From assembly GCA_028872875.1 (NCBI GenBank), contig JAGWOC010000005.1, positions 4,114 to 68,113 of the forward strand: DNA of 64,000 nt. Direction: 5' to 3'. The notes beneath the pieces were generated by a model. That model had not been told where the DNA came from and made no database searches. It saw nothing but the letters and a program-made list of their open reading frames with translations. The stretch comes from Chloroflexota bacterium. Lineage in GTDB: Bacteria > Chloroflexota > Dehalococcoidia > DSTF01 > JACRBR01. The position numbers and the translations under genes were made by a program. Below are positions 15,560 through 64,000 of the stretch, in pieces. The stretch's first letter is position 1; each line of letters begins with the position of its first letter.

Positions 15560-15570
15560 GACGGGCCGGC

Positions 15571-18287: not shown

Positions 18288-18296
18288 AGGGCCAGC

Positions 18297-46655: not shown

Positions 46656-46789
46656 CCGCATCCTTGCATCGGCGTTGCGGCCCGGCGGCGTAGGTGATCC
46701 CCCGATCATCACCCGCGCGCGCACGGCCGAACATCGGGCGGGACGATCGCGGACGGGCCGTACGGCCGCCGGGTGGCGGAGGGTCTTCC

Positions 46790-49744: not shown

Positions 49745-50277
49745 GCGCGGCGGGTGCCGTGGCGCGCCGGCAGGGAGCCGGCCTCAGCGGTGCGGCGCCC
49801 GGGCGAGGCGGCGCGCTGGCCAAGGCGCTGCGAGGGATGCTGCCCCGCCTCGTCCTGCGCGCCGCCGCCTCGTTGCTGCTGGTGAGCGCCGGCGCAGCGC
49901 TGGTGCGAGAGGTGCCCGTGGCGCCTCCGACGTGGTCCGCCCGCCAGCGCGCGCTCGCCGCGTTCCCCTCCAGCCTGCCGCAACCGCCGGGCACGCGGAT
50001 CGTCGGCGCGGGCGCTGGCAAGGAGCTGCCCTACCGGATCGACGCCACAGCCCCGCTCACGCCGCAGGCCGTCGCCGCGTACTACGGGCGGACAGCGGCG
50101 ACGGGCGGCTGGGCCGCCAGCGCCGCCGGCGCCAGGCCCGGCCGGATCGAGCTCCTGCACACCAACGCCCGGGGCCGCACCGACTTCGTCGCGCACGTCG
50201 AGGTCACCCCGGATGGCGGTGCCAGCCGCGTGATCATCGAGTTCTCGCCACTGCCGCTGGTCCTCGGGGGGCTGTAG
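49741..50277 (+). CDS. Hypothetical signal-anchored protein.
   Basis: 178 aa. ATGA overlap with the methyltransferase stop. 'LVLRAAASLLLVSAGAALV'. Confidence 0.5.
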   Translation: MSAAGAVARRQGAGLSGAAPGRGGALAKALRGMLPRLVLRAAASLLLVSAGAALVREVPVAPPTWSARQRALAAFPSSLPQPPGTRIVGAGAGKELPYRIDATAPLTPQAVAAYYGRTAATGGWAASAAGARPGRIELLHTNARGRTDFVAHVEVTPDGGASRVIIEFSPLPLVLGGL

Positions 50278-51644
50278 TGACGCGCGCGGCAGCGACGCCG
50301 GCGGCCGCGTGGCGAGCATGCGCGACCATCGCCCGGCCGCGGATGCGCGCCTTCTCGCTCGGATGGCTGCGGGAGGCGGGGGCGGCAGACCGGCTCGCCG
50401 CGCTCGGCCGCGGCTTCGCCCCGGCGCTGCTGCTGCTCTTCGCCGGCGCTGAAGCCGGCGTGCTGGCCGCCTGGCTGCCCGGCACGCTGCACCAGTGGTG
50501 GCGCGCCGGGCCGCTGGCGCCCGGCGACCGGCCGATGGGCGACTGGAGCGTCTTCTACGATTCCGCGAAGCACTTCACGCCGAACGGGCTGTACAACCCT
50601 GGCCTGGCGGTGATTGAGCGGCCCCTGACGCTCCTCTCGATGGCCGCGGCGTACCGGCTGTACGTCGCGCTGGCGGCACTGGCGGTGCTGGCGACCGCGT
50701 TCCTCGCGCAGCGGTACGTGCGTTCGCCGGAGGCGAAGCTGGCCGTCGTCCTGGGCGTGGTCGCGCTGCCAGAGATGCAGTTCGCGCTGCGCGGGGCCGT
50801 GCTGACGCCGTTTCTGGCCCTGGGGACGCTCGCGGGATTCCTGCTGCTGGAACGGCATCCGGCGCGCGCCGGCGCCTGCTTCGCCTTGCTGATGCTGAAG
50901 CCCTCGTTTGCCCCGCTGCTCGTGCTGTACCTGCTGTTCCGGCGGCAGTGGCGCGCGCTCGCCGTCATGGCCGGCATGACCGCGGCGATGAGCGCGACCG
51001 GCTTCGCCGCGATGGGAGGCGGCTACGCGCTCACGTACGCGCGCCTGCCGTTCGACCTCGGCGCCAGCCAGGGGGGCTGGCTCTCCGCGACGGCGCAGAC
51101 GTGGCAGCACTCGTGGCCGGGCGTCCTCATCAGCGCCGGCATCACGCCACGGCCCGCGCTGTGGCTGGAGCTGGTGCTGCTGAGCCTCGTCACGGTCTCT
51201 GTCGCCTGGCGCAGGACGGACATCGAAACGCAGGCAGCGGTGACGGCACTCGGCCTGCTGCTGGTCACGCCATACGCGATGTCCTACGACTGGGGGCTGC
51301 TCGCCGTGGGCGGCGCGCTGCTGCTGCGTTCCAGAGGGCCCGCCAGGACGCTCGTGCCGTTCCTGCTCGTCGGCGGGTTCGCGGCGGCGGTGCTCACGCA
51401 GGCGGCGACGCCGTACCCGCCACCGCCGCCCGTGATCGGCGATGGGTCGGTGACCTGGCCGCACGCCACGTACGGCTTCTACTGGAGCGCCCCGTTCGCG
51501 CTCGTCGCGATCATGGCCCTGGCGGTCACTGGACGGCGCGCCACGCGCGGGTCCGCCCACCGACCGCTGCCGCTGCGCTCCCGCGTCGAAGACGTGATCG
51601 AACTCGAGGAGATCGGCGAGCGCGCCACGCGTGAGGCCGCGTAG
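50277..51644 (+). CDS. Second DUF2029/GT87-like polytopic membrane protein (paralog).
   Basis: GTG shares 1 nt with the upstream TAG. An alternative ATG lies at 50343 (MRAFSLGW). Collinear with 46790-47980. Confidence 0.7.
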   Translation: MTRAAATPAAAWRACATIARPRMRAFSLGWLREAGAADRLAALGRGFAPALLLLFAGAEAGVLAAWLPGTLHQWWRAGPLAPGDRPMGDWSVFYDSAKHFTPNGLYNPGLAVIERPLTLLSMAAAYRLYVALAALAVLATAFLAQRYVRSPEAKLAVVLGVVALPEMQFALRGAVLTPFLALGTLAGFLLLERHPARAGACFALLMLKPSFAPLLVLYLLFRRQWRALAVMAGMTAAMSATGFAAMGGGYALTYARLPFDLGASQGGWLSATAQTWQHSWPGVLISAGITPRPALWLELVLLSLVTVSVAWRRTDIETQAAVTALGLLLVTPYAMSYDWGLLAVGGALLLRSRGPARTLVPFLLVGGFAAAVLTQAATPYPPPPPVIGDGSVTWPHATYGFYWSAPFALVAIMALAVTGRRATRGSAHRPLPLRSRVEDVIELEEIGERATREAA

Positions 51645-52097: not shown

Positions 52098-52272
52098 CGG
52101 GACCTCCTCGGTGTTGGACTGCCATCCCCTGCATCCATCATAGGCGATCGCGCACCGCGTGCATGCAACAGGATCGTTGCGCGGCGGCGCTCGTGCATCG
52201 GCGCGCGCCGTGTTACACAGGATGCGGCGCCGGCCGCGCGGGCGGCGCGCGCTGTGTGACAGGAGCATCCGC

Positions 52273-53517
52273 ATGGCCCCCGAGCGCCTCGGATTCGGCA
52301 TCTTCATGGCACCGTTCCACCGGCTGGGCGAGCATCCGACGCTTGCGTTGCGCCGTGACCTCGACCTGATCGCCTGGCTCGACGAGCTGGGCTACGACGA
52401 GGCGTGGGTCGGCGAGCACCACTCCGGCGGCTGGGAGACCATCGCCAGCCCGGAGATGTTCCTCGCGGCGGCGGGCGAGCGCACGCAGCGGATCCGCCTG
52501 GGCACGGGCGTCGTCAGCATCCCCTACCACCATCCGTTTCATGTCGCGGACCGCATCGTGCTGCTCGACCACCTGACGCGCGGCCGGGCGATGCTGGGCG
52601 TCGGCCCCGGCCAACTGCCGGCCGACGCGTACATGCTCGGCATCGACCCGGCGACGCAGCGCGCTCGGATGGACGAGGGCCTGGGGTTGATCATCCGCCT
52701 GCTGACGGAGGAAGCGCCGATCACGTACGAGGGCGAGTGGTTTCGGCTGCGGGACGCGCAGCTCCAGCTCAAGCCGCTGCAGCGGCCGACCGTGCCGATG
52801 GCCGTTGCGTCGACGATCAGTCCGGCGGGGATGACGACGGCGGGGAAGCACGGCGTCGGCGTACTCTCCGTGGGCTCGTACTCGCAGGAGGGCTTGCAGG
52901 CGCTGACGACGCAGTGGTCGTTCTGCGAGAAGGCGGCCGCGGAGGCCGGGCGGCCCGCGCCTGACCGCGCGGGCTGGCGCGTCGTCATGCCGTTCCACCT
53001 CGCCGAGACGAAGGAACGGGCGATCGAGCAGGCGCAGGACGGACTGCTGCGGTGGCAGAACGACTACTTCGCCAAGACATTCGGCGTCTACAACAACACG
53101 GAGTTCAAGACGGGGCGCGAGCTGGCGGAGCAGCTCAACGGCGTCGGCTTCATCATCGGCACGCCGGACGATGCGATCGAGAGTATCAGGAAGCTCCAGC
53201 AGCTATCGGGCGGCTTCGGTGCGTTCCTCGGGCTCGCGCACGAGTGGGCGGACCGCGGGCAGACGTTGCACAGCTTCGAGTTGATGGCGCGCTACGTGAT
53301 GCCGGAGTTCCAGGACCAGAACACATGGCTGCGCCGCTCGAACGAGTGGACGCAGGCGCACAAAGAAGGACTCATCGGCGGCACGCGCGCGGCGATCTTC
53401 AAGGCGATCGCGGAGAACAGGGACGCGGCGCCGCTGTTGCCTGGCATGATCCAGCAGGCGGCGGCGCAGGCGGCGCCGGCCCCGCCCGCGGCGGAGGATG
53501 CGGCCAGCCAGCGGTAG
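52273..53517 (+). CDS. Luciferase-like (LLM) flavin-dependent monooxygenase/oxidoreductase.
   Basis: 414 aa from MAPERLGF (RBS AGGAG). 'WVGEHHSGGWE...IPYHHPFHVADRIVLLDHLTRGRAMLGVGPG'. Confidence 0.85.
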   Translation: MAPERLGFGIFMAPFHRLGEHPTLALRRDLDLIAWLDELGYDEAWVGEHHSGGWETIASPEMFLAAAGERTQRIRLGTGVVSIPYHHPFHVADRIVLLDHLTRGRAMLGVGPGQLPADAYMLGIDPATQRARMDEGLGLIIRLLTEEAPITYEGEWFRLRDAQLQLKPLQRPTVPMAVASTISPAGMTTAGKHGVGVLSVGSYSQEGLQALTTQWSFCEKAAAEAGRPAPDRAGWRVVMPFHLAETKERAIEQAQDGLLRWQNDYFAKTFGVYNNTEFKTGRELAEQLNGVGFIIGTPDDAIESIRKLQQLSGGFGAFLGLAHEWADRGQTLHSFELMARYVMPEFQDQNTWLRRSNEWTQAHKEGLIGGTRAAIFKAIAENRDAAPLLPGMIQQAAAQAAPAPPAAEDAASQR

Positions 53518-53645
53518 CGACGCGCGGGGACCGCGTCGCACCAGATCGACGTGGCGCGACCGCCGCAGGCGCAGATCGCAGGCGGGCATCGTAGGTGCGG
53601 CCTGAAGGCTGGCCGGCGGCGGGCGGCATGCTATAACTGAGCGTC

Positions 53646-53722
53646 CCCAGGGTAGCCAAGCGGCCTAAGGCAACGGTCTGTAAAACCGTGTATCGGTGGT
53701 TCGAATCCACCCCCTGGGACCA
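53646..53722 (+). tRNA. tRNA with anticodon GUA (Tyr-like) but a class I (short variable arm) structure; identity uncertain.
   Basis: Acceptor CCCAGGG/CCCTGGG, D-loop AGCGGCCTAAGG, anticodon stem ACGGT/ACCGT with loop CTGTAAA, 5-nt variable region, T-arm GGTGG-TTCGAAT-CCACC, ACCA 3' end encoded. Confidence 0.65.
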
Positions 53723-53838
53723 TGCTCTAGCATCGCGATCGGCGTGTACGGGGGCGCCGATTTCGCTTCTGTGCGGGAGATGCGCGCGACGGCCGATGCG
53801 ATGCGCGCACGGGGACGGCGCGCTCTCCGCATCCCCCG

Positions 53839-56634
53839 TTAGTCCACCTTCGCGACATTGACGCGCACGCCGCGGTCGAAGGGCACCGGCTGCCACTGGA
53901 AGGGCCAGTAGCGAAGGTGCCCGTAGCCGCCCGCGAAGTGCAGCCACTTCACCATGCCGGGCTCCAGGTCGGAGGCCCCCTTCCAGGTGCGGTACATGTA
54001 CGGCTCCCACCCGTTGTAGGAGATCACCTGTCCCGGCCGCACGGTGGCGGAGAGTTTCACCGGCACGATGAACGCGCCCAGGTCGTTCTGGACCTCGACC
54101 TCCTCCTCGTCGCGGATGTTGAGGCGCGCGGCGTCGTCGTCGTTCATCACCAGGTGCGGCCTGCCGCGGTGGGTCTGCAAGAGGAGCTTGTTGGTGATGT
54201 TCATGGAGTGGATGCTCCAGCGGTTGTGTCCGCTGGTCATGACGAAGGGGTAGTCGCCGCCCTGGGGCGGGTTGTCCTTGTGACACGGCAGCGCTTCGCC
54301 GGCTTCGATGAACCACTCGTGGTCGATGTAGAACTGGGCACGCCGCGTCAGCGTCGGATACGGGACCTTCTTCTCGGTGTGCCAGGTGAACGCCGTGTGC
54401 GTCTCGTCCGTCTTGATATCGGCCGCCTGGCTGTGCGACATCGGCCCGATGCCCCAGTTGAGGAATCGCATGTAGCCCTGCTCGCGCAGCGTGTCGAGCG
54501 ACGTGCCCTCGGGCAGGTTGCCCGCTTCGACCGCGTCGCTCACCCATTCGCGTGCCACGGCCTCCGTGTTGTCGAGCGAGCCGTCCACCGTGAACTGCTG
54601 CCTGAGGCCGGCGAACTGGTGCACATTGCCGAGCGCGTCGGTGCACTCGCCGATGCCGCGGGCCTTGGCGCGCCCCTCGATCTTCTCGGCCAGCATGACG
54701 GCCATCTCGACCTCCGGCATCACGCCGTCCGGCGGGTCGACCGCCTTGTCCGAGAACGTCAGGTTCATCAGGTGCGGCGTCGGGAACATGAAGGCGATCT
54801 TCTCGTAATGGTGGGCGACGGGCAGGACGTAGTCGGAGTACATACCGGTGGTGGTCATCCGCCAGTCGACGCTCACGATGCAGCGGAGCTTTTCCCAGAG
54901 GTGGGGGAGCAGCAGGTTCTGGCCGCCGCGCGTGCGGCGCAGCGCGTTGCCGCCGACCTCGAAGTAGACGCGCGGCGGAGCGGCCGATGCGGTCCGCCCG
55001 GCGCTCTTCCACCAGTCTTTGTCGAGCGCCTCGGCGATGTAGTCGTCGAACGGCCGCTGCATCGTGGGGTCGTTGTACGCGCGGTTGTTCCAGTGCTCCT
55101 TGTAGCCCCAGTGGTAGTACCAGAGCATCGCCGGCGGGACCATGCCCTGCGTCTGCGAGAAGCGGTGCATCAGCTCGATGTGCGCCATCTCCTCCGTGCG
55201 GGTCGGGTCTTCGCGCTTGACCAGCTCAAGGAGCGCCTTCCGCATGTTGAGGACATTGCGCGCCTCGGCGCGGCCGGTCTTTCCCTTGGCGAACGAGAGG
55301 AACGGGCCATCGAAGCCGGCAACGGACCACTCCACCGGGCCGGTGCCCTTGCGGCCCCAGTTGCCGGTGAGCGCGAGCACCAGCAGGTACGACCGCAGTA
55401 TCAGGTCGGAGTGGTAGTACTTGAACGACGTCGCGCCGCAGAAAATACTGCCGCGCTTGCTGGCGATCTTCCGGGCGAGCGTGCGGATGATCTCCGGGTT
55501 CACGCCGCACATGGCCGAGGCTTGTTCCGGCGTGTAGTCCGCCAGGCGCTCCTTCATCAGCTCGAAGACGGGTACAACCTGCGTCATCGTCCCGTCCTTG
55601 AGCTGGACGGTGCGCGGGCCGGTCAGCGCCGGTTGCATCCCCGCAAGAGCGAGCGTTTCGAGCGGCGCCTCAGCGACACGCCCGCTGCGCTCGTCCCAGA
55701 TGTAGAACTGGTCGTCGCGGCCGCCAGCCTGCAGGTCGGTCTGCCGGAGGAACCGCTGGTTGTCGACGCGCACCAGCAGCGGCAGGTCGGTCTGCTCGCA
55801 GATGAACTCCTTCTTGAAGAGGCCCTCTTCGATGATCACCTGTGCCATGGCGAGCCCGAGTGCGGCGTCGGTGCCGGGCTTGATCGGCACGAAGTAGTCG
55901 GCGTGCGTGTGCGACGGGCTGGTATCGGGGGCGACGAGCACGATCTCCGCGCCCTTGTAGCGCGCCTCCGAGGTGAAGTGGTGGGAGGGGATCATCGTGT
56001 ACGCCGGGTTGCTGTGCGTGTACATGATGAACTCGGCATGGAAGATGTCGTCGATGCTGCTCGCCGGGTCGAACTTGCCGAAGGTGAGGTAGATGCCAGG
56101 CGAGAAGTCGTTGATGGTCGCGTTGGTGTCCAGGGCAACACCCCCGAGGATGCCGACCAGGCGTGAGAACATGAGGCCGGTCATCAGGCCGCCCTCGCCG
56201 GGCGTGCCCTCGTCGATGATCGTCTCCGGCCCGCCCTCCTCGATCGCGTCGAGGATCTGGTCCGCGATCTCAGTCAGCGCCTGATCCCAGGAGATCCGCG
56301 CCCATTTGCCTTCACCGCGCGCGCCGGCGCGCTTCAACGGGTGCAGGACGCGCTCGGGCGCGTAGAGCAGTCGGCTCCACGCCGCGCCTTTCTGGCAACC
56401 CAGCGGGTTCATGTCCGGCACGCCTTCCTCGACGACCGGCATGGTCCCCGCCTGCTCCTCGGCGACGACGGCACCGTCCTTCACGTAGACGCGATACGGG
56501 CAGTTCCCCGGATAGCAGTCGACGCAATGCGTCCCCCAGGTGACGCGGTCCCAGCGCGCGCTCTCGCGATAGCGTTCCTCGGAGGGGACGGCCTGCGCGC
56601 TGGCTGGCGGCGATTCGCGCGGCGGCGTGGACAT
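53839..56634 (-). CDS. Molybdopterin (bis-MGD) oxidoreductase catalytic subunit, NarG-like type II DMSO-reductase family, cytoplasmic (paralog 1).
   Basis: 931 aa from MSTPP (RBS GGGAGG). FS0 motif 'HCVDCYPGNCPYRVYVKDG' ...'NPLGCQKGA'. No twin-arginine signal. Confidence 0.9.
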   Translation of the reverse strand: MSTPPRESPPASAQAVPSEERYRESARWDRVTWGTHCVDCYPGNCPYRVYVKDGAVVAEEQAGTMPVVEEGVPDMNPLGCQKGAAWSRLLYAPERVLHPLKRAGARGEGKWARISWDQALTEIADQILDAIEEGGPETIIDEGTPGEGGLMTGLMFSRLVGILGGVALDTNATINDFSPGIYLTFGKFDPASSIDDIFHAEFIMYTHSNPAYTMIPSHHFTSEARYKGAEIVLVAPDTSPSHTHADYFVPIKPGTDAALGLAMAQVIIEEGLFKKEFICEQTDLPLLVRVDNQRFLRQTDLQAGGRDDQFYIWDERSGRVAEAPLETLALAGMQPALTGPRTVQLKDGTMTQVVPVFELMKERLADYTPEQASAMCGVNPEIIRTLARKIASKRGSIFCGATSFKYYHSDLILRSYLLVLALTGNWGRKGTGPVEWSVAGFDGPFLSFAKGKTGRAEARNVLNMRKALLELVKREDPTRTEEMAHIELMHRFSQTQGMVPPAMLWYYHWGYKEHWNNRAYNDPTMQRPFDDYIAEALDKDWWKSAGRTASAAPPRVYFEVGGNALRRTRGGQNLLLPHLWEKLRCIVSVDWRMTTTGMYSDYVLPVAHHYEKIAFMFPTPHLMNLTFSDKAVDPPDGVMPEVEMAVMLAEKIEGRAKARGIGECTDALGNVHQFAGLRQQFTVDGSLDNTEAVAREWVSDAVEAGNLPEGTSLDTLREQGYMRFLNWGIGPMSHSQAADIKTDETHTAFTWHTEKKVPYPTLTRRAQFYIDHEWFIEAGEALPCHKDNPPQGGDYPFVMTSGHNRWSIHSMNITNKLLLQTHRGRPHLVMNDDDAARLNIRDEEEVEVQNDLGAFIVPVKLSATVRPGQVISYNGWEPYMYRTWKGASDLEPGMVKWLHFAGGYGHLRYWPFQWQPVPFDRGVRVNVAKVD

Positions 56635-56742
56635 GGTCAACCTCCCGGCGGCTCGGGCCGGAGCCGCGCTACGACGCTGTCATGGCGTCGCCCCGTCGCG
56701 GAAGGCGGCGGGCGGCGCATGCTCGATGCGCTGCGGTGGCGG

Positions 56743-59526
56743 TCACGGCGCCTTCTCGACCTCCACACGCGTGTCGCGGTCGTTGTGGCCGGGCTGCAGG
56801 ATCGCTGGCGCCGGCTGGATGTGGAAGTAGCCGCCCGCGAGCTCGACGGGGTTCATCGGCGTCGCGATCACGTTGCGGTGTCCGATGCCGCCTTCGAACT
56901 GGTAGTTCTCCCACGCGTGGTAGACGATCACCTGCCCGGGCCGCACGGACGCCGCGACCTTGGCGCGGATCAGGAACGAGCCGATGTCGTTCTTCACGCG
57001 CACGCGGTCACCGTTGGCGATCCCGCGCTCGCGGGCATCGGCCTTCGAGATGAAGATGGCGGGCTCGCCCCGCTCGAGCTGGAGCATGAGCGGGTTCGTG
57101 CGGAAGGACGCGTGGATGCTGTGGCGGTTGTGGCCGCCGGTCATCACCAGCGGGTAGTCGCCCCCCGACATGACCGGCTCCTTGTGTACCGGCAGCTCCT
57201 CGCCCAGCTCCAGGTAGAGCGGCTGGTCGATGTAGAACTGGATGCGCCGCGTCAGCGTCGGCCAGGGCATCTTCTTCTCGGTGCGCCAGGTGTGGGGCGT
57301 GAACGTCTCGCCCTCACGCAGGTCGCTCGCGTTGCTCCTGTTGCCGGGGTGCGACCCGAGGCTGGTGAAGCGCCGGAAGCCCTTCTTCTTGAACTCCGCC
57401 CACCGCGGCGTCCCGAGGTGCGTCGATGCGTTGACGACCGCCTCGGCGACCTTCTCGTGGTCGCGGGCCGTGAACGCGCCGCGGAACGTCATCCGGTGCA
57501 CCAGGCCGCCGAGGCGGCGGCGCCTGCCCCCGGCGGCGTACGACGTCAGCCCGCGCGCCCGCGCCCGCTCCTCCACCTTCTCCGCGAGCAGCACCATGAT
57601 CTCCCACTCCGGCTTCGCCTCGCCCGGCGGCTGGACGGCGGCGGTGGTGACGTGCGCGAACGGGGCGAGCGGCGTGTACCAGTCGTTCACGTCCGTCTTC
57701 TCGTACGACGCGGCCGCAGGCAAGACGTAGTCGGCGTTCAGCGCCGTGGTGCTCATGCGGATGTCGGTGGCGACGAGCAGGTCGAGCTTGGGCAGCAGCT
57801 CCTCGAAGAGCCGGTGGCCGCCGCGGACGCGCCGGAGCGGGTTGCTGCCGCAGGCGAAGAGCACCTTCGGCGGCGTCGCCGGCGCGGGCGCCTGCCAGCC
57901 GCGCCGCACGGAGTCGGCGAGGTACTCGTCGACGTCCTTCGTCAGGTACGGGTCCCACTCCCGGCTGCGGCCGCTGAACTTCCGCAGGCCGCCGTGCTGG
58001 TACCAGAACATGACCGCGCTGGCGCCACCCCAGACGCTCATCTTGCGGCCGAGCTGGAACATCGCCAGCTCGTTGGAGTACCCCTTCATCTTCATGCCGA
58101 TGAACGCCGGGATGGCGGGCGCCATCAGCCGCAGCGCATCGAGCCGTCCGAGGCCGGCCTGGTACGGCATACCGAGCGTGCCATCGACGATGAAGAAGGG
58201 GAGCGCGTCGTAGCCGGCGCCCTTCCTGCCCATCTGCCCGCAGAGCGCGAAGAGCAGGATCTGCGCGCGCATCATCAGGTCGCCGTGGTAGTACTTGGAG
58301 ATGCTGGCGCCGGCGACGCCCGACGCCGCGCGGGCGCCGGCGAACTCGCGCGCGAGGCCGCGGATCACGTCGGGATGCACGCCGCAGACCGCAGACGCCT
58401 GCTCCGGCGTGTCGTCGCGGTCGAGCCGCTCCTTCAGCACCTGGAAGACCGGCTTCACCTTCACCGGCCCGTCGCGCGTCCGCACGTCGTACGCTCCCTC
58501 GAGCGCCGGCACGGCGCCGGCGAGGCGCAGCGTCTTCTGCGACGCCTTCAACGGCCGTCCCGACGCCGTGTCATAGAAGGAGAAGGCATCGTCCCGCCCG
58601 CGCCGGCGCAGGTCGGACTCGCGCAGGAATCGGCCGGTGTCCGTGCGCACGAGGAAGGGCAGGTCGGTCTGCTCCCGCACGAAGCCCTTGTCGGCCAGCC
58701 CCTCGGCGATGATCACCTGCGCCATGGCGAGCGCGAGCGCGGCATCGGTGCCCGGGCGGACGGAGATCCAGCGGTCGGCGTGCGCGGCCGAGGCGTTGAA
58801 GTCGGGGCTGATGGCGATGACACGGGCGCCGTTGTAGCGGGCCTCGTTCAGGAAGTGGAAGTTGGGGATCTGTGTGTAGGCGGGATTGCCGCCCCAGATG
58901 AGGATCAGGTCCGAGTTGAAGTAGTCGTCCGCCGACCGGCTGGCGACCGGCACGCCGAACGTCACCGCCGCCCCCTGCTGCTCGTCGCCGACCTCGGTGT
59001 TGAGGTCGAGCACGGTGGCGCCGAGCAGGTTCGCGAAGCGGTTCATCGCGACGAACGAGGCGACCCCGGCCGCATTGCCGTCGAAGACGATCGCCTCCGG
59101 CGCATCGCGCGCGAGCGCGTCGACCATGTGGTCGGCGATGTCGCCGAGCGCCTCGTCCCAGCTCACCTGCTGCCAGCGCCCATCGCCGCGCGCGCCGGCG
59201 CGCTTGAGGGGATGCGTCAGGCGCGCCTCGTCGCGCATCGTCAGCGAGTAGCAGGCGCCCTTCTGGCAGCCGCGCGGGTTGAAGTCGGGCACCGACGGAT
59301 TGGTCTGAGGATACGTGCCGGACGCCTCCTCGAAGGCGACGGCGCCGTCCTTCACGTAGACGTTGTAGGCGCAGTTGCGCTGATACCAGCAGTTCAGCAG
59401 GTGGGTGCCCTTCGACACGCGCTGCCAGCGCCACCTTGCGCGATACGCATCGCCCGTCGATAGCGGCGCGGCCCACCTGGCAGCCGGCGCCTCGGACTCT
59501 GGACGCGGGTCGCCGTTCAACGCCAT
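56743..59526 (-). CDS. Molybdopterin oxidoreductase catalytic subunit, NarG-like (paralog 2).
   Basis: 927 aa from MALNGDP. 'THLLNCWYQRNCAYNVYVKDG' ... 'NPRGCQKGA'. Extensive collinear similarity to paralog 1 (for example 'PGTDAALALAMAQVIIAEGL'). No signal peptide. The track ORF extends to 59733. Confidence 0.9.
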   Translation of the reverse strand: MALNGDPRPESEAPAARWAAPLSTGDAYRARWRWQRVSKGTHLLNCWYQRNCAYNVYVKDGAVAFEEASGTYPQTNPSVPDFNPRGCQKGACYSLTMRDEARLTHPLKRAGARGDGRWQQVSWDEALGDIADHMVDALARDAPEAIVFDGNAAGVASFVAMNRFANLLGATVLDLNTEVGDEQQGAAVTFGVPVASRSADDYFNSDLILIWGGNPAYTQIPNFHFLNEARYNGARVIAISPDFNASAAHADRWISVRPGTDAALALAMAQVIIAEGLADKGFVREQTDLPFLVRTDTGRFLRESDLRRRGRDDAFSFYDTASGRPLKASQKTLRLAGAVPALEGAYDVRTRDGPVKVKPVFQVLKERLDRDDTPEQASAVCGVHPDVIRGLAREFAGARAASGVAGASISKYYHGDLMMRAQILLFALCGQMGRKGAGYDALPFFIVDGTLGMPYQAGLGRLDALRLMAPAIPAFIGMKMKGYSNELAMFQLGRKMSVWGGASAVMFWYQHGGLRKFSGRSREWDPYLTKDVDEYLADSVRRGWQAPAPATPPKVLFACGSNPLRRVRGGHRLFEELLPKLDLLVATDIRMSTTALNADYVLPAAASYEKTDVNDWYTPLAPFAHVTTAAVQPPGEAKPEWEIMVLLAEKVEERARARGLTSYAAGGRRRRLGGLVHRMTFRGAFTARDHEKVAEAVVNASTHLGTPRWAEFKKKGFRRFTSLGSHPGNRSNASDLREGETFTPHTWRTEKKMPWPTLTRRIQFYIDQPLYLELGEELPVHKEPVMSGGDYPLVMTGGHNRHSIHASFRTNPLMLQLERGEPAIFISKADARERGIANGDRVRVKNDIGSFLIRAKVAASVRPGQVIVYHAWENYQFEGGIGHRNVIATPMNPVELAGGYFHIQPAPAILQPGHNDRDTRVEVEKAP

Positions 59527-59757
59527 GGCCGTCGATCGGCTGGTGTGATGATGATGGCCGCCTCCTGGTGGCACGCGACTGCGGCCTGACGTCGTATGAC
59601 GAAGGCGTCGCGGCGTGCCCTCGTGCCCGGATACCGTACGGCGCCTGCCGCGCCGGGCGTAGGGCCATTGGTCATGTCGGGATCTGGCGGCGAGGCGGAA
59701 TCCGGCGTTGCGTATCGCCCGGCGGTCCGTCATGAAGCTGCGGGGCGCGCGGGGCGG

Positions 59758-61329
59758 TCAGGCGGGTGAGCGCTCCGGTGCCAGTTCGAGGGTCACGCAG
59801 GTCCCGGTGCCGGGTTCGCTGGCGATGCGGAGCTGGCCACCCACGATCTTGGCGCGCTCTTCCATGCCCATCAGCCCGAGGCCGACGCGGCCATCGCCGG
59901 CAGGCTGCTGCTGTGCGCGGTCGAAGCCCTGGCCGTCATCGACGATGCGCACAACGAATGCATCGCCGGCGGCATCCAGCGTCACGGTCGCGCTCGCAGC
60001 GCACGCGTGCCGCTCGACGTTGCGGAGGGCCTCCTGGACGACGCGAAACACCGCCACCTCCGTGTCGCCGCGCAGGCGCTGGACCTCACCATGCACCTCG
60101 AGCCGGACCGCCATGCCGGTGCGCCGCGCGGTCTCGGTGAGAAGCCAGTCGACCGCCTGGACCAGGCCGAGGTCGTCGAGCACGGACGGGCGCAGGTCGC
60201 GGCTGAAGCGACGGATGTTCTCCACGGCGGCGTCCACCATCTGTTCAAGGGCCAGCAGCCGCGCCGCGGTCGCCGCGGGCAGCCCGCGGCTGGCGCCCAA
60301 CGCGTCAACGGTGCCCTTGATCACGACGAGCGACTGCAGCGTGTCATCGTGCAATTCGCGGGCGAGTCGCTTGCGCTCCTCCTCCTGCGCGTTCGTCGCC
60401 ATGCGCAGGTAGGTCAGCAGGTTCTCCTGCGCGCGCCGCAGCTCGGCGAGCGCGCGCCGCTCCTCGTGATAGTGGTGCACGTTGTCGAGCGCCACGGCGA
60501 GCTGATGACTGACGGCGTCGAGCAGGCTCAGGTCGTCGGCCGACAGCGCGTGCGCGCGGCTCGCCATGCCCAGCGCGCCGAGGGTGGCATCCGGCGAGCG
60601 GATCGGGACGACGAGGACATCGCCGGCGCCGCCTCCAGCGCCGTTGTGGGCGTCGGGCCGCGGGCGCGCCGTCCCGTCGCCCAGCACGCGCTGCGTCAGC
60701 TCCTCGTATGCATGGGGCAGTGACTCCGCCTCCGGAGCGCGCGTCCCGCGTACGGTCAGGAGGGGAAACTCCGGGCAGCAGCCGCGGCCGAAGGCGATCC
60801 ACGCGACATCGGCCCGCTGCTGGCCGAGGATGCTGTCGAGCGTGTCGCCCACGACGCGCGCCGGGTCGAGCGAGCGGCCGATGGCGGCGGCCGTCGCGTT
60901 GAGCTGGGCGAGACGCCCGCTCACTTCCTCGGCCCGCTGCTTCGCCTGCGTCTCGCGGTCGACCCGGCGCGCGATGACGATGGCGAGCGCGATCATCGTG
61001 GCGAGCTCGAGGGTCTCGCCGGCCGCCTGGAGGCCTGAGTGCCAGAGGACGATGTTGGGCACGGCCAGCAGCGCGCTCCAGAGGGCCGTCGGGAGCGCTC
61101 CCTCGATCCCGAAGTTCAGCGCCGCGTACGTGACGGGGATCAGGTACGCGGACGCCGGCACAAAGTAGAGCGACGTCTGATGGCCCAGGAAGGAATCCGC
61201 CTCGAGCGCGGCGTGCACGGCCGTGATCGCCAGCACGAGCGCCTGGACGATCCAGAAGCGGTGGTCACGCAGACGCAGCAGGAACCGTGCCAGGAACCGC
61301 CGGAACTCGTCCGCCAACGCCGTCGTCAT
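59758..61329 (-). CDS. Membrane sensor histidine kinase, NarX/NarL-partner type (TM sensor, GAF, HisKA_3, HATPase_c).
   Basis: 523 aa. About 4 N-terminal TM helices, a GAF-like middle, H-box 'LARELHDDTLQSL', 'DDGQGF' and 'GLGLMGMEERA'. Confidence 0.9.
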   Translation of the reverse strand: MTTALADEFRRFLARFLLRLRDHRFWIVQALVLAITAVHAALEADSFLGHQTSLYFVPASAYLIPVTYAALNFGIEGALPTALWSALLAVPNIVLWHSGLQAAGETLELATMIALAIVIARRVDRETQAKQRAEEVSGRLAQLNATAAAIGRSLDPARVVGDTLDSILGQQRADVAWIAFGRGCCPEFPLLTVRGTRAPEAESLPHAYEELTQRVLGDGTARPRPDAHNGAGGGAGDVLVVPIRSPDATLGALGMASRAHALSADDLSLLDAVSHQLAVALDNVHHYHEERRALAELRRAQENLLTYLRMATNAQEEERKRLARELHDDTLQSLVVIKGTVDALGASRGLPAATAARLLALEQMVDAAVENIRRFSRDLRPSVLDDLGLVQAVDWLLTETARRTGMAVRLEVHGEVQRLRGDTEVAVFRVVQEALRNVERHACAASATVTLDAAGDAFVVRIVDDGQGFDRAQQQPAGDGRVGLGLMGMEERAKIVGGQLRIASEPGTGTCVTLELAPERSPA

Positions 61330-61341
61330 CGCGCGCGTCCT

Positions 61342-62055
61342 TCAGGGCAGATCATCGAGCAGCAGCCAGCCGTGACGGAGGCCGTACACGACCGCCTCCG
61401 TGCGCGATGCGACGCCCAGCTTGCTGAACATGCGGCTGAGGTGCGCGTGCACCGTGCGGACGCTGAGGCCGAGCTCCTGCGCGATCTCCTTGTTGCTGAT
61501 GCCCCGCGCGGCGAGCCGCAGCACGTCCATCTCGCGCTCCGACAGCACACCCCAGGGCGTCGCCGGCGCGGCGGACCCGCGGGGAACCGTGAAGCGGCGC
61601 AGGACGGCGCGGGCGATGGACGGGCTCAGGACCGGCTCGCCGTCGTGGACGCGGCGGATCGCCTGCGCGAGGTCGGCCGCCGCGATGGTCTTCAGCAGAT
61701 AACCAGCGGCGCCCGCCTCGAGCAGCGCGGCCACATAGGCCTCGTCATCGTAGACGGTGAGGGCGAGGATCGATACATCAGGCCAGCACGTCTTGATGCG
61801 TTTCGTGGCCTCGATGCCGTTCTCACCGGGCATCGACACGTCCATGAGCACGACGTCCGGGTGGAGCTTGCCGGCCAGCTCGACGGCTTCGCGGCCATCG
61901 CCCGCCTCGCCCACCACCTCGATGGATGGATCCGTGTCGGCGAGCCGCTGGCGCACGCCGGCGCGGAACAGCGGATGGTCATCGGCGATCAAGACGCGGA
62001 TGGTGTTGCTGGGTCCCTCGTCGGCGGCGCGCACGTCCATACGTTGACTATACAT
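61342..62055 (-). CDS. NarL/FixJ-family response regulator (receiver plus LuxR HTH).
   Basis: 237 aa. 'IRVLIADDHPLF', 'VVLMDVSMPGENG', and 'LSEREMDVLRLAARGISNKEIAQELGLSVRTV'. Confidence 0.9.
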   Translation of the reverse strand: MYSQRMDVRAADEGPSNTIRVLIADDHPLFRAGVRQRLADTDPSIEVVGEAGDGREAVELAGKLHPDVVLMDVSMPGENGIEATKRIKTCWPDVSILALTVYDDEAYVAALLEAGAAGYLLKTIAAADLAQAIRRVHDGEPVLSPSIARAVLRRFTVPRGSAAPATPWGVLSEREMDVLRLAARGISNKEIAQELGLSVRTVHAHLSRMFSKLGVASRTEAVVYGLRHGWLLLDDLP

Positions 62056-62245
62056 CCGGTGGGATGGGCGACAGGCGCGCGGACGCGCAGGTACTCCGCC
62101 ATTAGGTACGAATGCCTAACGTGGGCCACTGCCAGAATGCCTACGCGCATGCCGCACACCGGCCGACGGCGAGCGAGCTCGTGCGCGGTACGGTGGCGGT
62201 AGGTGCGGCCGACGGCTTGACCGGCCAGATCGCGGGAGGTTTACC

Positions 62246-63343
62246 ATGGCCCAAACAACGATGATCGGAGGTGAGCGCGTGCACGCTATCCGGAGTGCGC
62301 CACGGTGGATCGACCAGCGACTCGGGCTCGACGAGCTCAGCTACGACGTGCCGCGGCACGCCAACAACATCCTGTACGTCCTGGGCGGCATCACGCTCGT
62401 GGGCATCCTTACGCTCATCGCGTCCGGGATCTACCTGGCGCAGTACTACAACCCCGACCCGGCGTCGGCGCGCGACAGCGTCGTGTTCATCGTCAGCACG
62501 GTGAAGCTCGGCGCGTTCGTGCGCTCGTTCCACTTCTGGATGGCGAACCTGGTGATCATCACGGCCATGCTGCACCTCGTACGCGTCTTCGTGACCGGCT
62601 CGTACCGGGCGCCGCGTGAAGCGACGTGGCTGACGGGCGTCCTGCTGCTCTTCCTGCTCTTCGGCTTCGCCTTCACCGGCACCGTGCTGAAGTGGGACCA
62701 GGAAGGGTACGAGGCCCTGGGGCACAACCAGGACGTCGGCAAGCTGCTTGGCAGCACGGGCGCCTGGTTCACCTCCTCGTTCACGAGGAGCGTGCCGATC
62801 CTGACCCGCCTCTACATCGCCCACATCAGCATCCTGCCGGCGCTGCTGACGCTGGTGGTGCTGGCGCACCTGTTCCTGATCAAGCACCATGGCATCTCGG
62901 GCCTGCCGGGCCACGAGCCCGAGCGCACGGATGACACCGACACCAAGCGGGCGATCCGCGAGGAGGGCGCCTCGCCGTTCAGCGCGCACATCCGCCTGAT
63001 GGTCGGCTTCGGGCTGATGCTGACCGCGGCCGCAGCCGCGCTGACGCTGTTCATGGCCGCGCCGCTCGGCCAGGCCATCGTCCAGGGCGAGGAGGTCACC
63101 AAGCCGACCTGGATCTTCGTGGTGCTGTACCCGTTCGAGAACTGGGTCGGCGTCCGCGCGCTCCTGTGGGCGCCGATCATCGTGGCGCTCGCGCTGGCGG
63201 CGGTGCCGTTCATCGATCGCGCCCGCTCATCGGGCCTGCGGGCCCGCTGGCCGCTGTTGCTGCTCGGCCTGGTGGTCGCGCTCGCGTACACGGCGTTCAT
63301 CTTCTACGGCAAGTTCGGCCCCCACGGCCAGCACCTGATGTGA
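62246..63343 (+). CDS. Cytochrome b of the bc1/b6f complex type (quinol-oxidising, di-heme).
   Basis: 365 aa. RBS GGGAGG. Conserved heme-ligand His pairs in helices B and D ('FHFWMANLVIITAMLHLVRV', 'HISILPALLTLVVLAHLFLIKHHG') plus a PetD-like C-terminal part. Confidence 0.85.
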   Translation: MAQTTMIGGERVHAIRSAPRWIDQRLGLDELSYDVPRHANNILYVLGGITLVGILTLIASGIYLAQYYNPDPASARDSVVFIVSTVKLGAFVRSFHFWMANLVIITAMLHLVRVFVTGSYRAPREATWLTGVLLLFLLFGFAFTGTVLKWDQEGYEALGHNQDVGKLLGSTGAWFTSSFTRSVPILTRLYIAHISILPALLTLVVLAHLFLIKHHGISGLPGHEPERTDDTDTKRAIREEGASPFSAHIRLMVGFGLMLTAAAAALTLFMAAPLGQAIVQGEEVTKPTWIFVVLYPFENWVGVRALLWAPIIVALALAAVPFIDRARSSGLRARWPLLLLGLVVALAYTAFIFYGKFGPHGQHLM

Positions 63344-63349
63344 GGTGAT

Positions 63350-63592
63350 GTGATGAGACGCTTCTACGTGACGTTTCTCGTGCTGCTGTTCACCGCCAGC
63401 GTCGCGCTGACCTCGCTCGTGTCCGTTGGCGCGCGGATGCGGGCGGGCGACCTCGGGCCCGCGCCGGCTGTGATCGCGGCCGCGAGCTTTCTCGCGCTAG
63501 CGGTGGCGGGCACGCTGCTGCTGCGCATCATGTTCGTCCTGTCGCGCCCGGCGCCCGCCGGCGCCGCTTCCCGGAAAGGAGTGCAACGATGA
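63350..63592 (+). CDS. Small hydrophobic two-TM protein.
   Basis: 80 aa immediately after the cytochrome b stop: 'FYVTFLVLLFTASVALTSLVSV' and 'AVIAAASFLALAVAGTLLLRIMFVL'. Confidence 0.4.
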   Translation: MMRRFYVTFLVLLFTASVALTSLVSVGARMRAGDLGPAPAVIAAASFLALAVAGTLLLRIMFVLSRPAPAGAASRKGVQR

Positions 63593-64000
63593 AGACGGTC
63601 CTGGCTGCGATGATGGTAGTGGCGGCCGCCCTGGTGGTATCGGCCGCGGCTCTGGCGAGACCGGCGGCCGCGCATGGCGGCGCCACCGTGGCGGTGACGC
63701 CTGTCCAGGCGGCGCCCGGCGACAAGGTCCAGGTCGACCTCAAAGGCTACAGCCCGACGACGCTCGTCAGCATCACGCTGGAGGGGGTGACGGGGTCGCT
63801 CCCCCTGACGACGGTGACGACCGACGCCAATGGTGATGCGATGACGACGGCGGTCATCCCGGCGGGCGCGAACGCCGGCAGCTACAGCGTCCGGGCGGCA
63901 GGGGGCGACGACGATGCGACGACCGACTTCCGGATCAACGCCGCCGCGGCCGCATCCGGTGCAGCCGGATCGGCGATGGCGGCGCCGACGGGGAGCGGCG
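63589..64000 (+). CDS. Secreted protein (N-terminal signal peptide), 5' part only; runs off the window.
   Basis: RBS AAGGAG. 'MKTVLAAMMVVAAALVVSAAALARPAAAHGG...'. Thr/Ala/Gly-rich beta-rich region. Confidence 0.5.
   Translation, partial: MKTVLAAMMVVAAALVVSAAALARPAAAHGGATVAVTPVQAAPGDKVQVDLKGYSPTTLVSITLEGVTGSLPLTTVTTDANGDAMTTAVIPAGANAGSYSVRAAGGDDDATTDFRINAAAAASGAAGSAMAAPTGSG

Follow-up and report, generated by a model that had tools for sequence, protein, structure and literature searches.

Two adjacent genes for catalytic (alpha) subunits of molybdenum enzymes lie on the minus strand of the window (the whole stretch of DNA analyzed, 64 kb of a Chloroflexota genome), with no gene for a partner subunit beside them. 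What would such subunits catalyze, on which side of the membrane, and with which partners? The explanation we favor, with moderate confidence, is that the two proteins, Mo1 and Mo2, function as the catalytic subunits of two different cytoplasmic enzymes of the EbdA/S25DH (ethylbenzene dehydrogenase/steroid C25 dehydrogenase) branch, water-dependent hydroxylases with a shared beta subunit encoded elsewhere in the genome.

Two EbdA-like catalytic subunits

Mo1 (53839-56634, minus strand, 931 aa; MDE3094819.1) and Mo2 (56743-59526, minus strand, 927 aa; MDE3094820.1) both match PF00384 and PF01568, and TIGR03479 (type II DMSO reductase alpha) is the top NCBIfam model for both (874 bits for Mo1 and 873 bits for Mo2), in agreement with the earlier note, which had read these open reading frames as two alpha subunits of the type II DMSO-reductase family. 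The Mo2 start that gives 927 aa agrees with the homologs, and the 891-aa start used by NCBI would cut off a conserved YRxxWxW motif. In the alignment both proteins have the FS0 ligands (H, C, C, C) that the note had described; the Mo ligand, for which Asp had been weighed against Ser or Cys, is Asp in both (Asp223 in EbdA numbering), and Lys450 is also kept. All these positions are invariant across 103 family alphas, except in truncated sequences and in two paralogs whose FS0 His is replaced by Asn. Mo1 and Mo2 are intact, EbdA-like catalytic subunits of type II DMSO-reductase-family enzymes, and both are under purifying selection (dN/dS of 0.12 for Mo1 and 0.23 for Mo2, in comparison with the closely related locus L080).

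The nearest solved structure to both proteins is EbdABC of Aromatoleum aromaticum (PDB 2ivf), which has the FS0 His/Cys3 set, the Asp ligand and Lys450 in common with them: EbdA (2ivf_A) matches Mo1 over its full length (773 bits, 42% identity) and Mo2 end to end (609 bits, 37.5% identity). The EbdA equivalog model gives only 826 bits (Mo1) and 636 bits (Mo2) against a cut-off of 2000, so neither is an EbdA ortholog. They also differ from EbdA at His192, which is Pro in Mo1 and Ala in Mo2; this residue is replaced in S25DH as well, whose active site has Asp and Lys and no His (PMC6153880). The second-best solved match is PcrA of PcrAB (PDB 4ydd; 446 bits for Mo1 and 538 bits for Mo2), which belongs with SerA, ClrA and DdhA to the same family and shares FS0 and the Asp ligand. 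The PcrA match, however, is weaker and fragmented into two to three stretches, and these enzymes are Tat-exported oxyanion reducers, whereas the context of Mo1 and Mo2 is one of organic-acid and CoA catabolism.

Among the well-known type II enzymes only NarG, which works with NarH as beta subunit and the NarJ chaperone, faces the cytoplasm and is made without a Tat signal, and the regulator neighboring Mo1 and Mo2 is NarL-like. It is nevertheless extremely improbable that the two are divergent NarG or NxrA proteins (respiratory nitrate reductase or nitrite oxidoreductase) with narHJI elsewhere: they are ~930 aa long against ~1,240 aa for NarG, the narG model TIGR01580 gives 211 and 303 bits (Mo1 and Mo2) against a cut-off of 1084, and NarG itself is only a distant match (156 and 254 bits), which together with NXR (116 and 110 bits) falls well below EbdA and PcrA. 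By model scores the neighboring kinase has no NarX/NarQ-type sensor (70-73 bits; cut-offs 553-578).

Mo1 and Mo2 share 43% identity, a distance comparable to that of each from EbdA, and they fall into separate deep lineages in the tree. The earlier description of the pair as tandem paralogs holds for two adjacent family members but not for a local duplication; a recent tandem duplication was rejected, given this identity and the two deep Tat-less lineages of the ethylbenzene dehydrogenase/steroid C25 dehydrogenase branch (Mo2 being in the second, deeper one).

Absence of a Tat leader and the cellular location

No Tat motif is found in Mo1 or Mo2, even with the longest possible upstream extensions of the reading frames, and both N-termini are hydrophilic (the Kyte-Doolittle 19-residue mean peaks at 0.38 and 0.16), which bears out the earlier reading that neither a twin-arginine signal nor a hydrophobic N-terminus is present. 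The alignments to TIGR03479 begin only at model position 45 for Mo1 and 46 for Mo2, which leaves the part of the model that covers the Tat leader without a counterpart in either protein. The motif is likewise absent from all 117 Mo1-type matches and from all 52 proteins of the Mo2 clade (P0121-P0176); as a positive control, canonical SRRxFL-type motifs were found in 60 out of 64 next-tier relatives of Mo2 (relatives labeled steroid C-25 hydroxylase alpha by JGI). Judged from these sequences, Tat loss is clade-wide in two lineages. Mo1 and Mo2 lack the signal and are therefore predicted to be cytoplasmic, different from EbdA, which has a Tat leader and belongs to a periplasmic enzyme. The Tat-less branch has more than 500 matches in species-representative genomes, mostly from Dehalococcoidia, and Mo1 and Mo2 are, as far as sequence comparison can tell, members of a large, uncharacterized cytoplasmic branch of the family of water-dependent hydrocarbon-hydroxylating Mo enzymes.

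Gene contexts in relatives point to the chemistry. Neighbors of Mo1-clade orthologs include acyl-CoA dehydrogenase, thiolase/DUF35, CoA-transferase and SDR genes, and Mo2-clade orthologs lie within conserved operons for a citryl-CoA-lyase-like protein, three enoyl-CoA hydratases, a FabK-like reductase, a type III CoA-transferase and an acyl-CoA dehydrogenase. These contexts suggest an organic, CoA-linked substrate, perhaps an alkyl, alicyclic or isoprenoid compound or a CoA thioester thereof. Each enzyme would carry Mo-bis-MGD with an Asp ligand and one FS0 [4Fe-4S] cluster and, by analogy with the EBDH/S25DH branch, would most likely convert a C-H bond of an organic compound to an alcohol, taking the oxygen from water; homology and gene context make such hydroxylation, rather than a reductase reaction on an oxyanion or another acceptor, the most likely reaction. 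It was counted against a beta subunit supplied in trans that the operons of Mo2 orthologs look otherwise complete as catabolic operons, where an obligate partner would be expected to be co-encoded more often.

In a few loci (L042, L027, L015 and L016) Tat-less and Tat-bearing alphas occur together, and an FeS protein with a Tat signal is encoded beside the regulator of a Mo1 ortholog in L003. Both arrangements would suit export of Mo1 and Mo2 by hitch-hiking on a Tat-bearing partner, with activity outside the membrane as in classical EBDH and S25DH. We consider this highly improbable: wherever relatives encode an EbdB-like beta or an EB_dh gamma together with a Tat-less alpha, that partner is without a signal peptide, the neighboring genes encode cytoplasmic CoA-ester enzymes, and the signal is missing throughout both lineages.

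Partner subunits

The earlier note reported no beta, gamma or chaperone gene next to the pair, and the same holds for the whole window: tblastn searches of the 64 kb with 40 EbdB-like beta, 13 NarJ-like delta and seven EB_dh gamma proteins, plus MobA/MobB, all from related loci, returned no match to any of them at E <= 1e-3. Neither the 10-kb flanks of L080, the 93%-identical relative, nor the 10 kb around the alphas of the Mo1 subclade (L001-L004, L008, L032) or the Mo2 clade (L080, L082-L085) yielded a beta, gamma or delta gene; the exception is a beta-alpha pair ~6 kb from a Mo1-clade alpha in L070 and L076. Other relatives of Mo1 resemble EbdABC in this respect, being co-encoded with EbdB-like (Fer4_11), EbdC-like (EB_dh) and EbdD/NarJ-like proteins. 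An EbdB-like beta gene lies within 3 kb of 20 (~40%) of the 50 Tat-less alpha genes whose flanks reach 3 kb or more on both sides. The proposal of a distinct cytoplasmic subgroup with its partner elsewhere stands, but not all loci of that subgroup lack a beta gene.

Alpha genes outnumber beta genes in the family (117 versus 40 in 80 loci). Some loci encode complete gamma-beta-delta-alpha sets (EB_dh gamma, NarJ-like delta), and several alphas are often arranged around one gamma-beta-delta set, in arrays such as alpha-alpha-alpha-gamma-beta-delta-alpha (L057), alpha-alpha-gamma-beta-delta-alpha (L067) and alpha-alpha-beta-delta-alpha-alpha (L026). Multi-alpha arrays around one gamma-beta-delta set indicate that beta sharing is normal in this family.

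Could Mo1 and Mo2 instead be alpha-only enzymes, with FS0 exchanging electrons with a ferredoxin, a flavodoxin or an ETF-like or other flavoprotein, and no need of beta, gamma or delta? The model for this is provided by NarB/NasA and FdhF, monomeric cytoplasmic Mo-bis-MGD enzymes with one FS0-type [4Fe-4S] cluster that pass electrons via soluble carriers; these belong to another branch of the superfamily, with Cys or Sec, not Asp, as Mo ligand, and the NasC model is weak on Mo1 and Mo2 (81 and 132 bits). Orthologs of both lineages have no adjacent beta gene in many genomes, the conserved CoA-ester operons holding Mo2 orthologs have no EbdB-like gene, and ferredoxin-domain proteins are encoded near Mo2 orthologs in two loci (a 523-aa Fer4-CrtI-like protein in L083 and an 88-aa ferredoxin in L084). 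We still regard alpha-only function as unlikely: no soluble acceptor candidate is conserved beside Mo1/Mo2-type genes, orphan and beta-adjacent alphas are mixed through the tree, sharing of one set by several alphas is usual, and Mo1 is indistinguishable from beta-partnered paralogs at conserved positions (it retains 95.1% of the 224 columns that are at least 90% identical among beta-adjacent alphas; the leave-one-out mean of those alphas is 95.4%).

A beta gene, moreover, is probably present in the same MAG. P0241 (MDE3096260.1), a partial EbdB-like beta from a contig of 31.5 kb, shares 96% identity with its counterpart in MAG WY5.bin150 (L019), just as Mo1 does with its own WY5.bin150 ortholog (L004), and the accession of P0241 is 1,440 numbers beyond those of Mo1 and Mo2; accession proximity and matching identity levels thus place it, probably, on another contig of their MAG. 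Supply of beta in trans is the most likely arrangement, although no chaperone or gamma gene of this genome was located, which was counted against it. From Mo, two electrons would reach FS0 and would then most likely go to an EbdB-like four-cluster beta, possibly with an EB_dh heme-b gamma, and maturation would proceed via a NarJ-like chaperone; beta, gamma and chaperone would come from another locus of the same genome, common to several alpha paralogs.

Such sharing has a precedent, and the earlier statement that an orphan, duplicated, cytoplasmic alpha pair is not a described arrangement does not hold as regards orphan alpha genes. Sterolibacterium denitrificans has eight S25DH alpha paralogs (S25DH1-4 isoenzymes), some without beta/gamma genes of their own, and alpha1 was produced with beta3, gamma3 and the chaperone SdhD (PMC6016249). 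The likeness (orphan alpha genes, many alphas per genome) is drawn from published descriptions. Use of another paralog's beta by an orphan S25DH alpha is already known; Mo1 and Mo2 differ as Tat-less, cytoplasmic lineages with orthologs in operons of CoA-ester metabolism, whereas the S25DH alphas carry a Tat leader and a periplasmic location has been proposed for their enzyme.

Regulatory genes, cytochrome b and outer neighbors

Upstream of Mo2 and on the same strand are genes for a sensor histidine kinase (59758-61329, minus strand, 523 aa; about four predicted TM segments within the first ~125 residues, then GAF, HisKA_3 and HATPase_c, by Pfam) and a NarL/FixJ-type response regulator (61342-62055, minus strand; Response_reg and GerE, by Pfam and NCBIfam). 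The TM, GAF and HisKA_3 regions and the NarL/FixJ type are those the note had named, and the link recurs: in L003 an orthologous regulator (54% identity) and a full-length GAF kinase (36%) precede an 82%-identical Mo1 ortholog, similar regulator-kinase pairs flank alpha genes in L042, L045, L057, L066 and L071, and regulators of 40-46% identity occur in alpha-containing loci L020, L042, L045, L066 and L071. It is likely that this pair provides dedicated transcriptional control of Mo1 and Mo2; counted against it, no operator motif common to the regulator and the Mo2 promoter region was found.

In the Mo2-Mo1 spacer (56635-56742, minus strand, 108 bp) a ribosome-binding site, GGGAGG, precedes the Mo1 ATG by 6 nt, and no terminator-like site was found, which would fit co-transcription of Mo2 and Mo1. 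The kinase-Mo2 spacer (59527-59757, minus strand, 231 bp) is non-coding, since a 2-nt indel relative to L080 breaks the long ORF upstream of Mo2; it is a possible internal promoter region, in which neither a sigma-70-like promoter nor a terminator was detected. A candidate operator lies between the regulator and cytochrome b genes (62102-62143, minus strand), where TAGGCATTC occurs twice, 25 bp apart, overlapping an imperfect palindrome (TTAGGCA-ttcg-TACCTAA). These are the only two copies in 64 kb (0.13 expected), and the site is conserved in L080.

A bc-type cytochrome b (62246-63343, plus strand, 365 aa; PF00033 and PF13631) with seven TM-like segments (a b6-like N-half and three more TM helices) is encoded divergently, 190 bp from the regulator. 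The position and family given in the earlier note hold, but the adjacency is not widely conserved: it is seen only in L080, a near-identical relative (93% for Mo2 and 96% for Mo1), and 79 other loci lack it. That the cytochrome serves Mo1 and Mo2 as electron acceptor or donor in the membrane, as part of a new quinone-linked complex under one regulator, is very unlikely. The repeated motif in the 190-bp region, the arrangement kept in L080, and a quinone-reactive Tat-FeS and NrfD module at the equivalent position to the orthologous regulator in L003 speak for it; yet no FeS connector is encoded, the proteins that follow the cytochrome suggest an outward-facing partner, and the L003 FeS protein, having a Tat signal, would be separated by the membrane from an alpha without one. 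The cytochrome b is probably outside the molybdoenzyme system. It is followed by genes for a two-TM protein (63350-63592, plus strand, 80 aa) and a secreted protein (plus strand, from 63589 and running past the window end at 64000), both recognized by ORF and hydropathy and without a Pfam match; the trio is also found in L080. At the other end, a convergent gene downstream of Mo1 (52159-53517, plus strand), encoding a luciferase-like flavin monooxygenase (PF00296, 167.5 bits), marks the 3' boundary of the operon.

Two alpha subunits of the ethylbenzene dehydrogenase-like branch

The window has a G+C content of ~70%. The genes under study lie on its minus strand in the order NarL-type response regulator (RR; 61342–62055, Response_reg and GerE domains), membrane GAF/HisKA_3 histidine kinase (HK; 59758–61329, 12 bp downstream of the RR gene), Mo2 (56743–59526, after a 231-bp spacer) and Mo1 (53839–56634, after a 108-bp spacer), the last two being type II DMSO-reductase-family alpha (catalytic subunit) genes. 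A cytochrome b gene (62246–63343, plus strand) is divergent from the RR gene, and a gene for a luciferase-like monooxygenase (52159–53517) converges on Mo1. The coordinates and domain calls in the earlier note are correct; its observation of cytoplasmic alpha genes lacking partner genes is confirmed, and its interpretation of them as a distinct subgroup in a novel arrangement is supported only in part. A promoter and terminator consensus scan of 53400–63700 found nothing exceeding shuffled expectation.

Mo1 and Mo2 have identical GenBank counterparts on a 77.8-kb contig of a Chloroflexota MAG (MDE3094819.1 and MDE3094820.1). For Mo2, however, the GenBank model (891 aa) starts 36 codons too late and drops 59419–59526, including a conserved YRxxWxW segment that aligns to EbdA (ethylbenzene dehydrogenase, EBDH); a start at 59526, giving 927 aa, agrees with homologs and with the JGI gene call. 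The flanks of the locus encode two luciferase-like flavin monooxygenases (43218–44237 and 52159–53517) and two GT87 glycosyltransferases (46694–47980 and 49599–51644), resembling the paralog expansions reported in SAR202-type Chloroflexota; luciferase-like monooxygenases (cluster c6) are recurrent neighbours of alphas of this family.

Both proteins contain molybdopterin oxidoreductase and MGD-binding domains, and the top NCBIfam model for both is TIGR03479 (type II DMSO reductase alpha), with scores (874.2 bits for Mo1 and 873.2 bits for Mo2) slightly below the curated cut-off of 984.75 bits. Both alignments begin only at position 45/46 of the model and then continue to its end; the leader is thus absent, which accounts for part of the score shortfall. 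The nearest solved structure is in both cases EbdA (2ivf_A), aligned end to end: 773 bits and 42% identity for Mo1 (PcrA 446, NarG 156 and NXR 116 bits), and 609 bits and 37.5% identity for Mo2 (PcrA 538, NarG 254 and NXR 110 bits). Scores for Mo1 and Mo2 stay below the cut-offs of the EbdA equivalog NF042978 (825.6 and 636 bits; cut-off 2000 bits) and of the narG model TIGR01580 (211.5 and 303.2 bits, in four fragments; cut-off 1084), and their lengths are 931 and 927 aa versus ~1,240 aa for NarG.

The FS0 ligands H/C/C/C (H82, C86, C92 and C127 of EbdA) are aligned in Mo1, in Mo2 and in 99–103 of 103 family members. The Asp equivalent to EbdA Asp223, the predicted Mo ligand, is present in both proteins and in all 103 relatives. 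Lys450 (EbdA numbering), which keeps the Asp ligand monodentate (PMC6153880), is kept in Mo1, Mo2 and essentially all 103 aligned alphas. In place of His192 of EbdA, Mo1 has Pro and Mo2 has Ala; S25DH, the steroid C25 dehydrogenase of Sterolibacterium denitrificans, likewise lacks the EbdA-type His192 (PMC6153880). Mo1 and Mo2 are predicted to be EBDH-like hydroxylases, a placement made by retention of Lys450 and by EbdA, a hydroxylase and no oxyanion reductase, as top solved match. In two alphas of a deep lineage (L016, 6826–9819, and L037, 6777–9692, both minus strand) an Asn replaces the FS0 His (NCCCDK), which suggests an altered or different cluster ligation.

Neither gene is a decaying copy: compared with their counterparts in L080, the locus of a near-identical relative (93–96% identity), dN/dS is 0.12 for Mo1 and 0.23 for Mo2, indicating purifying selection. 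The two had been described as tandem paralogs, but they are no recent duplicate. In a neighbour-joining tree of alphas that included EbdA, Mo1 groups with alphas of L001–L004, L008, L032, L070 (L070.1) and L076 (L076.2), whereas Mo2 and L004.0 branch outside the group formed by EbdA and the Mo1-type clade. The tandem Mo2–Mo1 order is found only in close relatives (L004, L080 and L081); elsewhere each ortholog occurs alone. Members of the Mo1 subclade have no adjacent beta (EbdB-like FeS subunit) gene in any case, and most have an acyl-CoA dehydrogenase gene beside them. Mo1 and Mo2 are intact catalytic subunits. Each comes from its own deep lineage within the EBDH/S25DH-like hydroxylases; both lineages lack a Tat leader and are part of a large, uncharacterised cytoplasmic radiation.

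Export signals and partner subunits

No Tat motif is present in Mo1 or Mo2, even when the ORFs are stretched to the furthest upstream start, and neither has a PF10518 match or a hydrophobic segment; their first ~100 residues are hydrophilic. The extended ORF ahead of Mo2, which reaches 59733 and has an 'RR' early on, was considered as a Tat leader and rejected. It shows no hydrophobic character, and its frame is broken by a 2-nt indel when compared with L080, so it is non-coding. As a positive control, SRRxFL-type leaders were found in 60 of 64 Mo2 relatives of the 50–54% identity tier (median 68 residues before the FS0 His); the motif is missing from all 52 proteins of the Mo2 clade itself and from all 117 Mo1-type matches (medians ~39 residues before the FS0 His). 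Loss of the Tat leader is therefore a clade-level trait in two lineages.

A scan of species-representative genomes gave at least 548 confirmed relatives. Among the matches listed, most are from Dehalococcoidia and other Chloroflexota and the others from MAGs labelled Binatia, Myxococcota and Acidobacteria, and several paralogs per genome are common. Of the 78 loci that we fetched, 56 carry the labels Chloroflexota, Dehalococcoidia, Anaerolineaceae or Chloroflexia; Binatia, Myxococcota and Acidobacteria are among the labels of the remainder. ORFs called and clustered in 80 loci include 117 alpha genes and 40 beta-like genes; by Pfam the accessory clusters are Fer4_11 (beta), EB_dh (PF09459; gamma), Nitrate_red_del (delta, the NarJ-like chaperone) and MobB. 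Only four of 103 full-length alphas have a Tat motif. An EbdB-like beta gene lies within 3 kb of 36 of 99 Tat-less alphas, and of 20 of the 50 (~40%) whose flanks measure 3 kb or more on each side. The betas and gammas of these loci have no signal peptides either, so that complete cytoplasmic gamma–beta–delta–alpha systems exist (L015, L042, L057 and L067). Several alphas often surround one accessory set (e.g. alpha-alpha-alpha-gamma-beta-delta-alpha in L057, alpha-alpha-gamma-beta-delta-alpha in L067 and alpha-alpha-beta-delta-alpha-alpha in L026), and sharing of beta, gamma and delta among alpha paralogs thus looks normal in this family.

To our knowledge, all characterised EBDH-like hydroxylases (of ethylbenzene, p-cymene and steroid C25/C26) are Tat-exported periplasmic alpha-beta-gamma enzymes of denitrifying Proteobacteria; Mo1 and Mo2 differ from the characterised EBDH and S25DH enzymes in having no Tat leader. 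In the searchable, incomplete open-access literature we found no description of cytoplasmic or Tat-less EBDH-like enzymes in Chloroflexi, Dehalococcoidia or SAR202. In L042 (5126–15677), and also in L015, L016 and L027, a Tat-less alpha lies beside a Tat-bearing one (L042 has two gamma-beta-delta sets), so cytoplasmic and exported isoenzymes would share one gene cluster.

We searched the whole 64-kb window by tblastn with proteins taken from related loci (40 EbdB-like beta, 13 NarJ-like delta and 7 EB_dh gamma proteins, MobA and MobB) and obtained no match at E ≤ 1e-3. L080, which has the same order of cytochrome b gene and RR-HK-Mo2-Mo1 and reaches past the window's right edge, has no beta, gamma or delta gene within 10 kb on either side. 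The earlier note holds in two of its claims, that the alphas have neither a Tat signal nor a hydrophobic N-terminus and that no beta, gamma or chaperone gene is adjacent. A third, that an orphan, duplicated, cytoplasmic alpha pair is not a described arrangement, fails as far as orphan alpha genes are concerned: such sharing of accessory subunits is on record for S. denitrificans, which has eight S25DH alpha paralogs, with alpha1 co-produced with subunits beta3 and gamma3 and with chaperone SdhD (PMC6016249).

A beta gene is found elsewhere in a close relative. MAG WY5.bin150, which carries a 96% identical Mo1 ortholog (L004), has a beta–alpha pair on another contig (L019). The beta fragment of L019, used as a query, retrieved a 96% identical protein, P0241 (MDE3096260.1), which is partial, annotated as 'respiratory nitrate reductase subunit beta' and encoded on a 31.5-kb contig of a Chloroflexota MAG. 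GenBank numbers MAG proteins in consecutive blocks, and this accession comes 1,440 numbers after those of Mo1 and Mo2. Given this proximity and an identity that mirrors that of Mo1, P0241 very probably belongs to the same genome as Mo1 and Mo2. As a further test we took the 224 columns of the alignment in which beta-adjacent alphas show 90% identity or more. Mo1 retains 95.1% of them (leave-one-out mean of the beta-adjacent alphas, 95.4%), giving no sign that partner-related constraints have been lost. Mo2 retains 74.6%, comparable to the 77.2% of EbdA, an enzyme of another lineage that does have a beta partner.

In the reading that we consider most likely, Mo1 and Mo2 rely on an EbdB-like beta and a chaperone that would be supplied from elsewhere in the genome. 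The main rival is that the alphas work without such partners, with a soluble acceptor. Such a mode of action would fit a Mo1 subclade in which no adjacent beta is seen, and fits less well with the conserved columns of Mo1; we regard it as rather unlikely.

Gene neighbourhoods and possible substrates

The neighbours of Mo1-clade alphas include an acyl-CoA dehydrogenase, an SCP-x-type thiolase with a ChsH2-like OB-fold protein, a CoA-transferase, nitroreductase-like proteins, SDRs and enolase-superfamily proteins. Mo2-clade orthologs (72–80% identity) lie within a conserved operon in three genomes. In two of these (L083 and L084) the operon starts with a TetR regulator, a limonene-epoxide-hydrolase (LEH)/SnoaL-like protein and a Zn-dependent alcohol dehydrogenase (present in L083, absent at that position in L084), continues with a citryl-CoA-lyase-like protein, an enoyl-CoA hydratase, the alpha and a FabK-like enoyl reductase, and ends with an enoyl-CoA hydratase, a type III CoA-transferase, another enoyl-CoA hydratase and an acyl-CoA dehydrogenase. 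The third (L085) has the same catabolic genes except for the LEH/SnoaL-like gene, and there the cluster is divergent from the alpha. L085 also has a second type II-like system of a different kind (14333–19315), encoded directly behind its Mo2 ortholog: a molybdopterin protein the size of NarG/NxrA (1151 aa), the product of a 94-aa ORF, and a Fer4_11 protein of 415 aa.

Pathways of CoA esters such as these are cytoplasmic, which fits with the absent export signal, and the contexts suggest that the substrate is an organic compound, perhaps a CoA thioester, and not an oxyanion. By homology to EBDH and S25DH, Mo1 and Mo2 may catalyse water-dependent C–H hydroxylation. A bolder reading, which we hold to be improbable, would make the Tat-less EBDH/S25DH-like radiation a set of previously unrecognised cytoplasmic O2-independent Mo hydroxylases acting on CoA-activated or intracellular alkyl, alicyclic or isoprenoid substrates, with at least the Mo1 subclade and the Mo2 clade, which consistently lack a beta, operating as alpha-only enzymes with a soluble acceptor. 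If it were true, Dehalococcoidia-type heterotrophs would gain a new route into recalcitrant organic matter. Cytoplasmic water-based hydroxylation of unactivated carbons, if it occurs, would be an unrecognised attack on branched and alicyclic compounds by abundant uncultured Chloroflexota of soil, groundwater and marine habitats, and the enzymes could then also serve as new regio-selective biocatalysts. What the window itself shows is more modest, namely two intact members with a likely two-component control of their own; a different contig probably encodes their partner subunit.

Two-component system and divergent cytochrome b

The RR matches PF00072 (101.7 bits) and PF00196 (76 bits), and scores 161.8 with the NarL equivalog (cut-off 250); it therefore belongs to the NarL/FixJ family and is not NarL itself. 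The HK has PF07730, PF02518 and GAF domains, and by its scores with the NarX (69.6, cut-off 578) and NarQ (72.8, cut-off 553) models it is no nitrate sensor. The association with alpha genes is seen in other genomes. For example, in L003 an RR (54% identical), a TM-GAF-HisKA_3 kinase (36% identical over 523 residues) and a MarR gene precede an 82% identical Mo1 ortholog, and similar RR-HK pairs flank alphas in L042, L045, L057, L066 and L071 (with MobB in two of them). This recurrence supports a link between RR-HK pairs and alpha genes, though such systems are common.

The spacer between the RR and cytochrome b genes contains TAGGCATTC twice, 25 bp apart (62102–62143, minus strand). These are the only copies in 64 kb (0.13 expected) and are kept in L080; an imperfect palindrome similar to NarL-type heptamers, TTAGGCA-ttcg-TACCTAA, overlaps them, and the repeat is a candidate operator. 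It is confined to this spacer and is absent in L003, L045 and L071. In a search for an operator in common with the intergenic regions preceding Mo2 and Mo1, only GC-rich 8–9-mers expected by chance turned up. Two of the loci with a two-component system (L045, 9720–9962, and L071, 1978–2220) share a conserved 81-aa ORF between MobB and the alpha; this ORF, a 203-aa ORF in L042 and cluster c34, all small conserved ORFs beside alphas, matched no Pfam family.

The cytochrome b is a stand-alone, b6-like protein with seven TM segments. It matches the N-terminal four-helix di-heme domain of cytochrome b (PF00033, 108 bits), and scores 159 with the b6 subfamily model (cut-off 325) and 87.6 with that of actinobacterial QcrB (cut-off 500). 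In canonical bc1 and b6f complexes the Rieske protein is encoded adjacent; we saw no Rieske-like gene among the genes downstream of the cytochrome b gene. We rejected the link to cytochrome b as a feature of the family, since tblastn matches it only in L080 and in none of 79 other loci. In L003 its position is occupied by genes for a Fer4_11 protein with a Tat signal and an NrfD membrane protein (4570–6872, minus strand), divergent from the orthologous RR-HK-MarR-Mo1 operon. The Fer4_11 protein was rejected as the beta partner of a cytoplasmic alpha: it has a Tat signal and ~31% identity to EbdB-like betas and is followed by NrfD, features that indicate an NrfCD-like outward-facing module. The cytochrome b of the window and the FeS-NrfD pair of L003 are both quinone-reactive but outward-facing, and a link of either to the molybdoenzymes is unproven. 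The cytochrome b gene is followed by genes for an 80-aa protein with two TM segments and a secreted protein without a Pfam match (62246–64000 in all, plus strand). This trio may be an unusual outward-facing quinol-oxidising module; it also occurs in L080, where cupredoxin, YHS and AhpC/redoxin genes come next.
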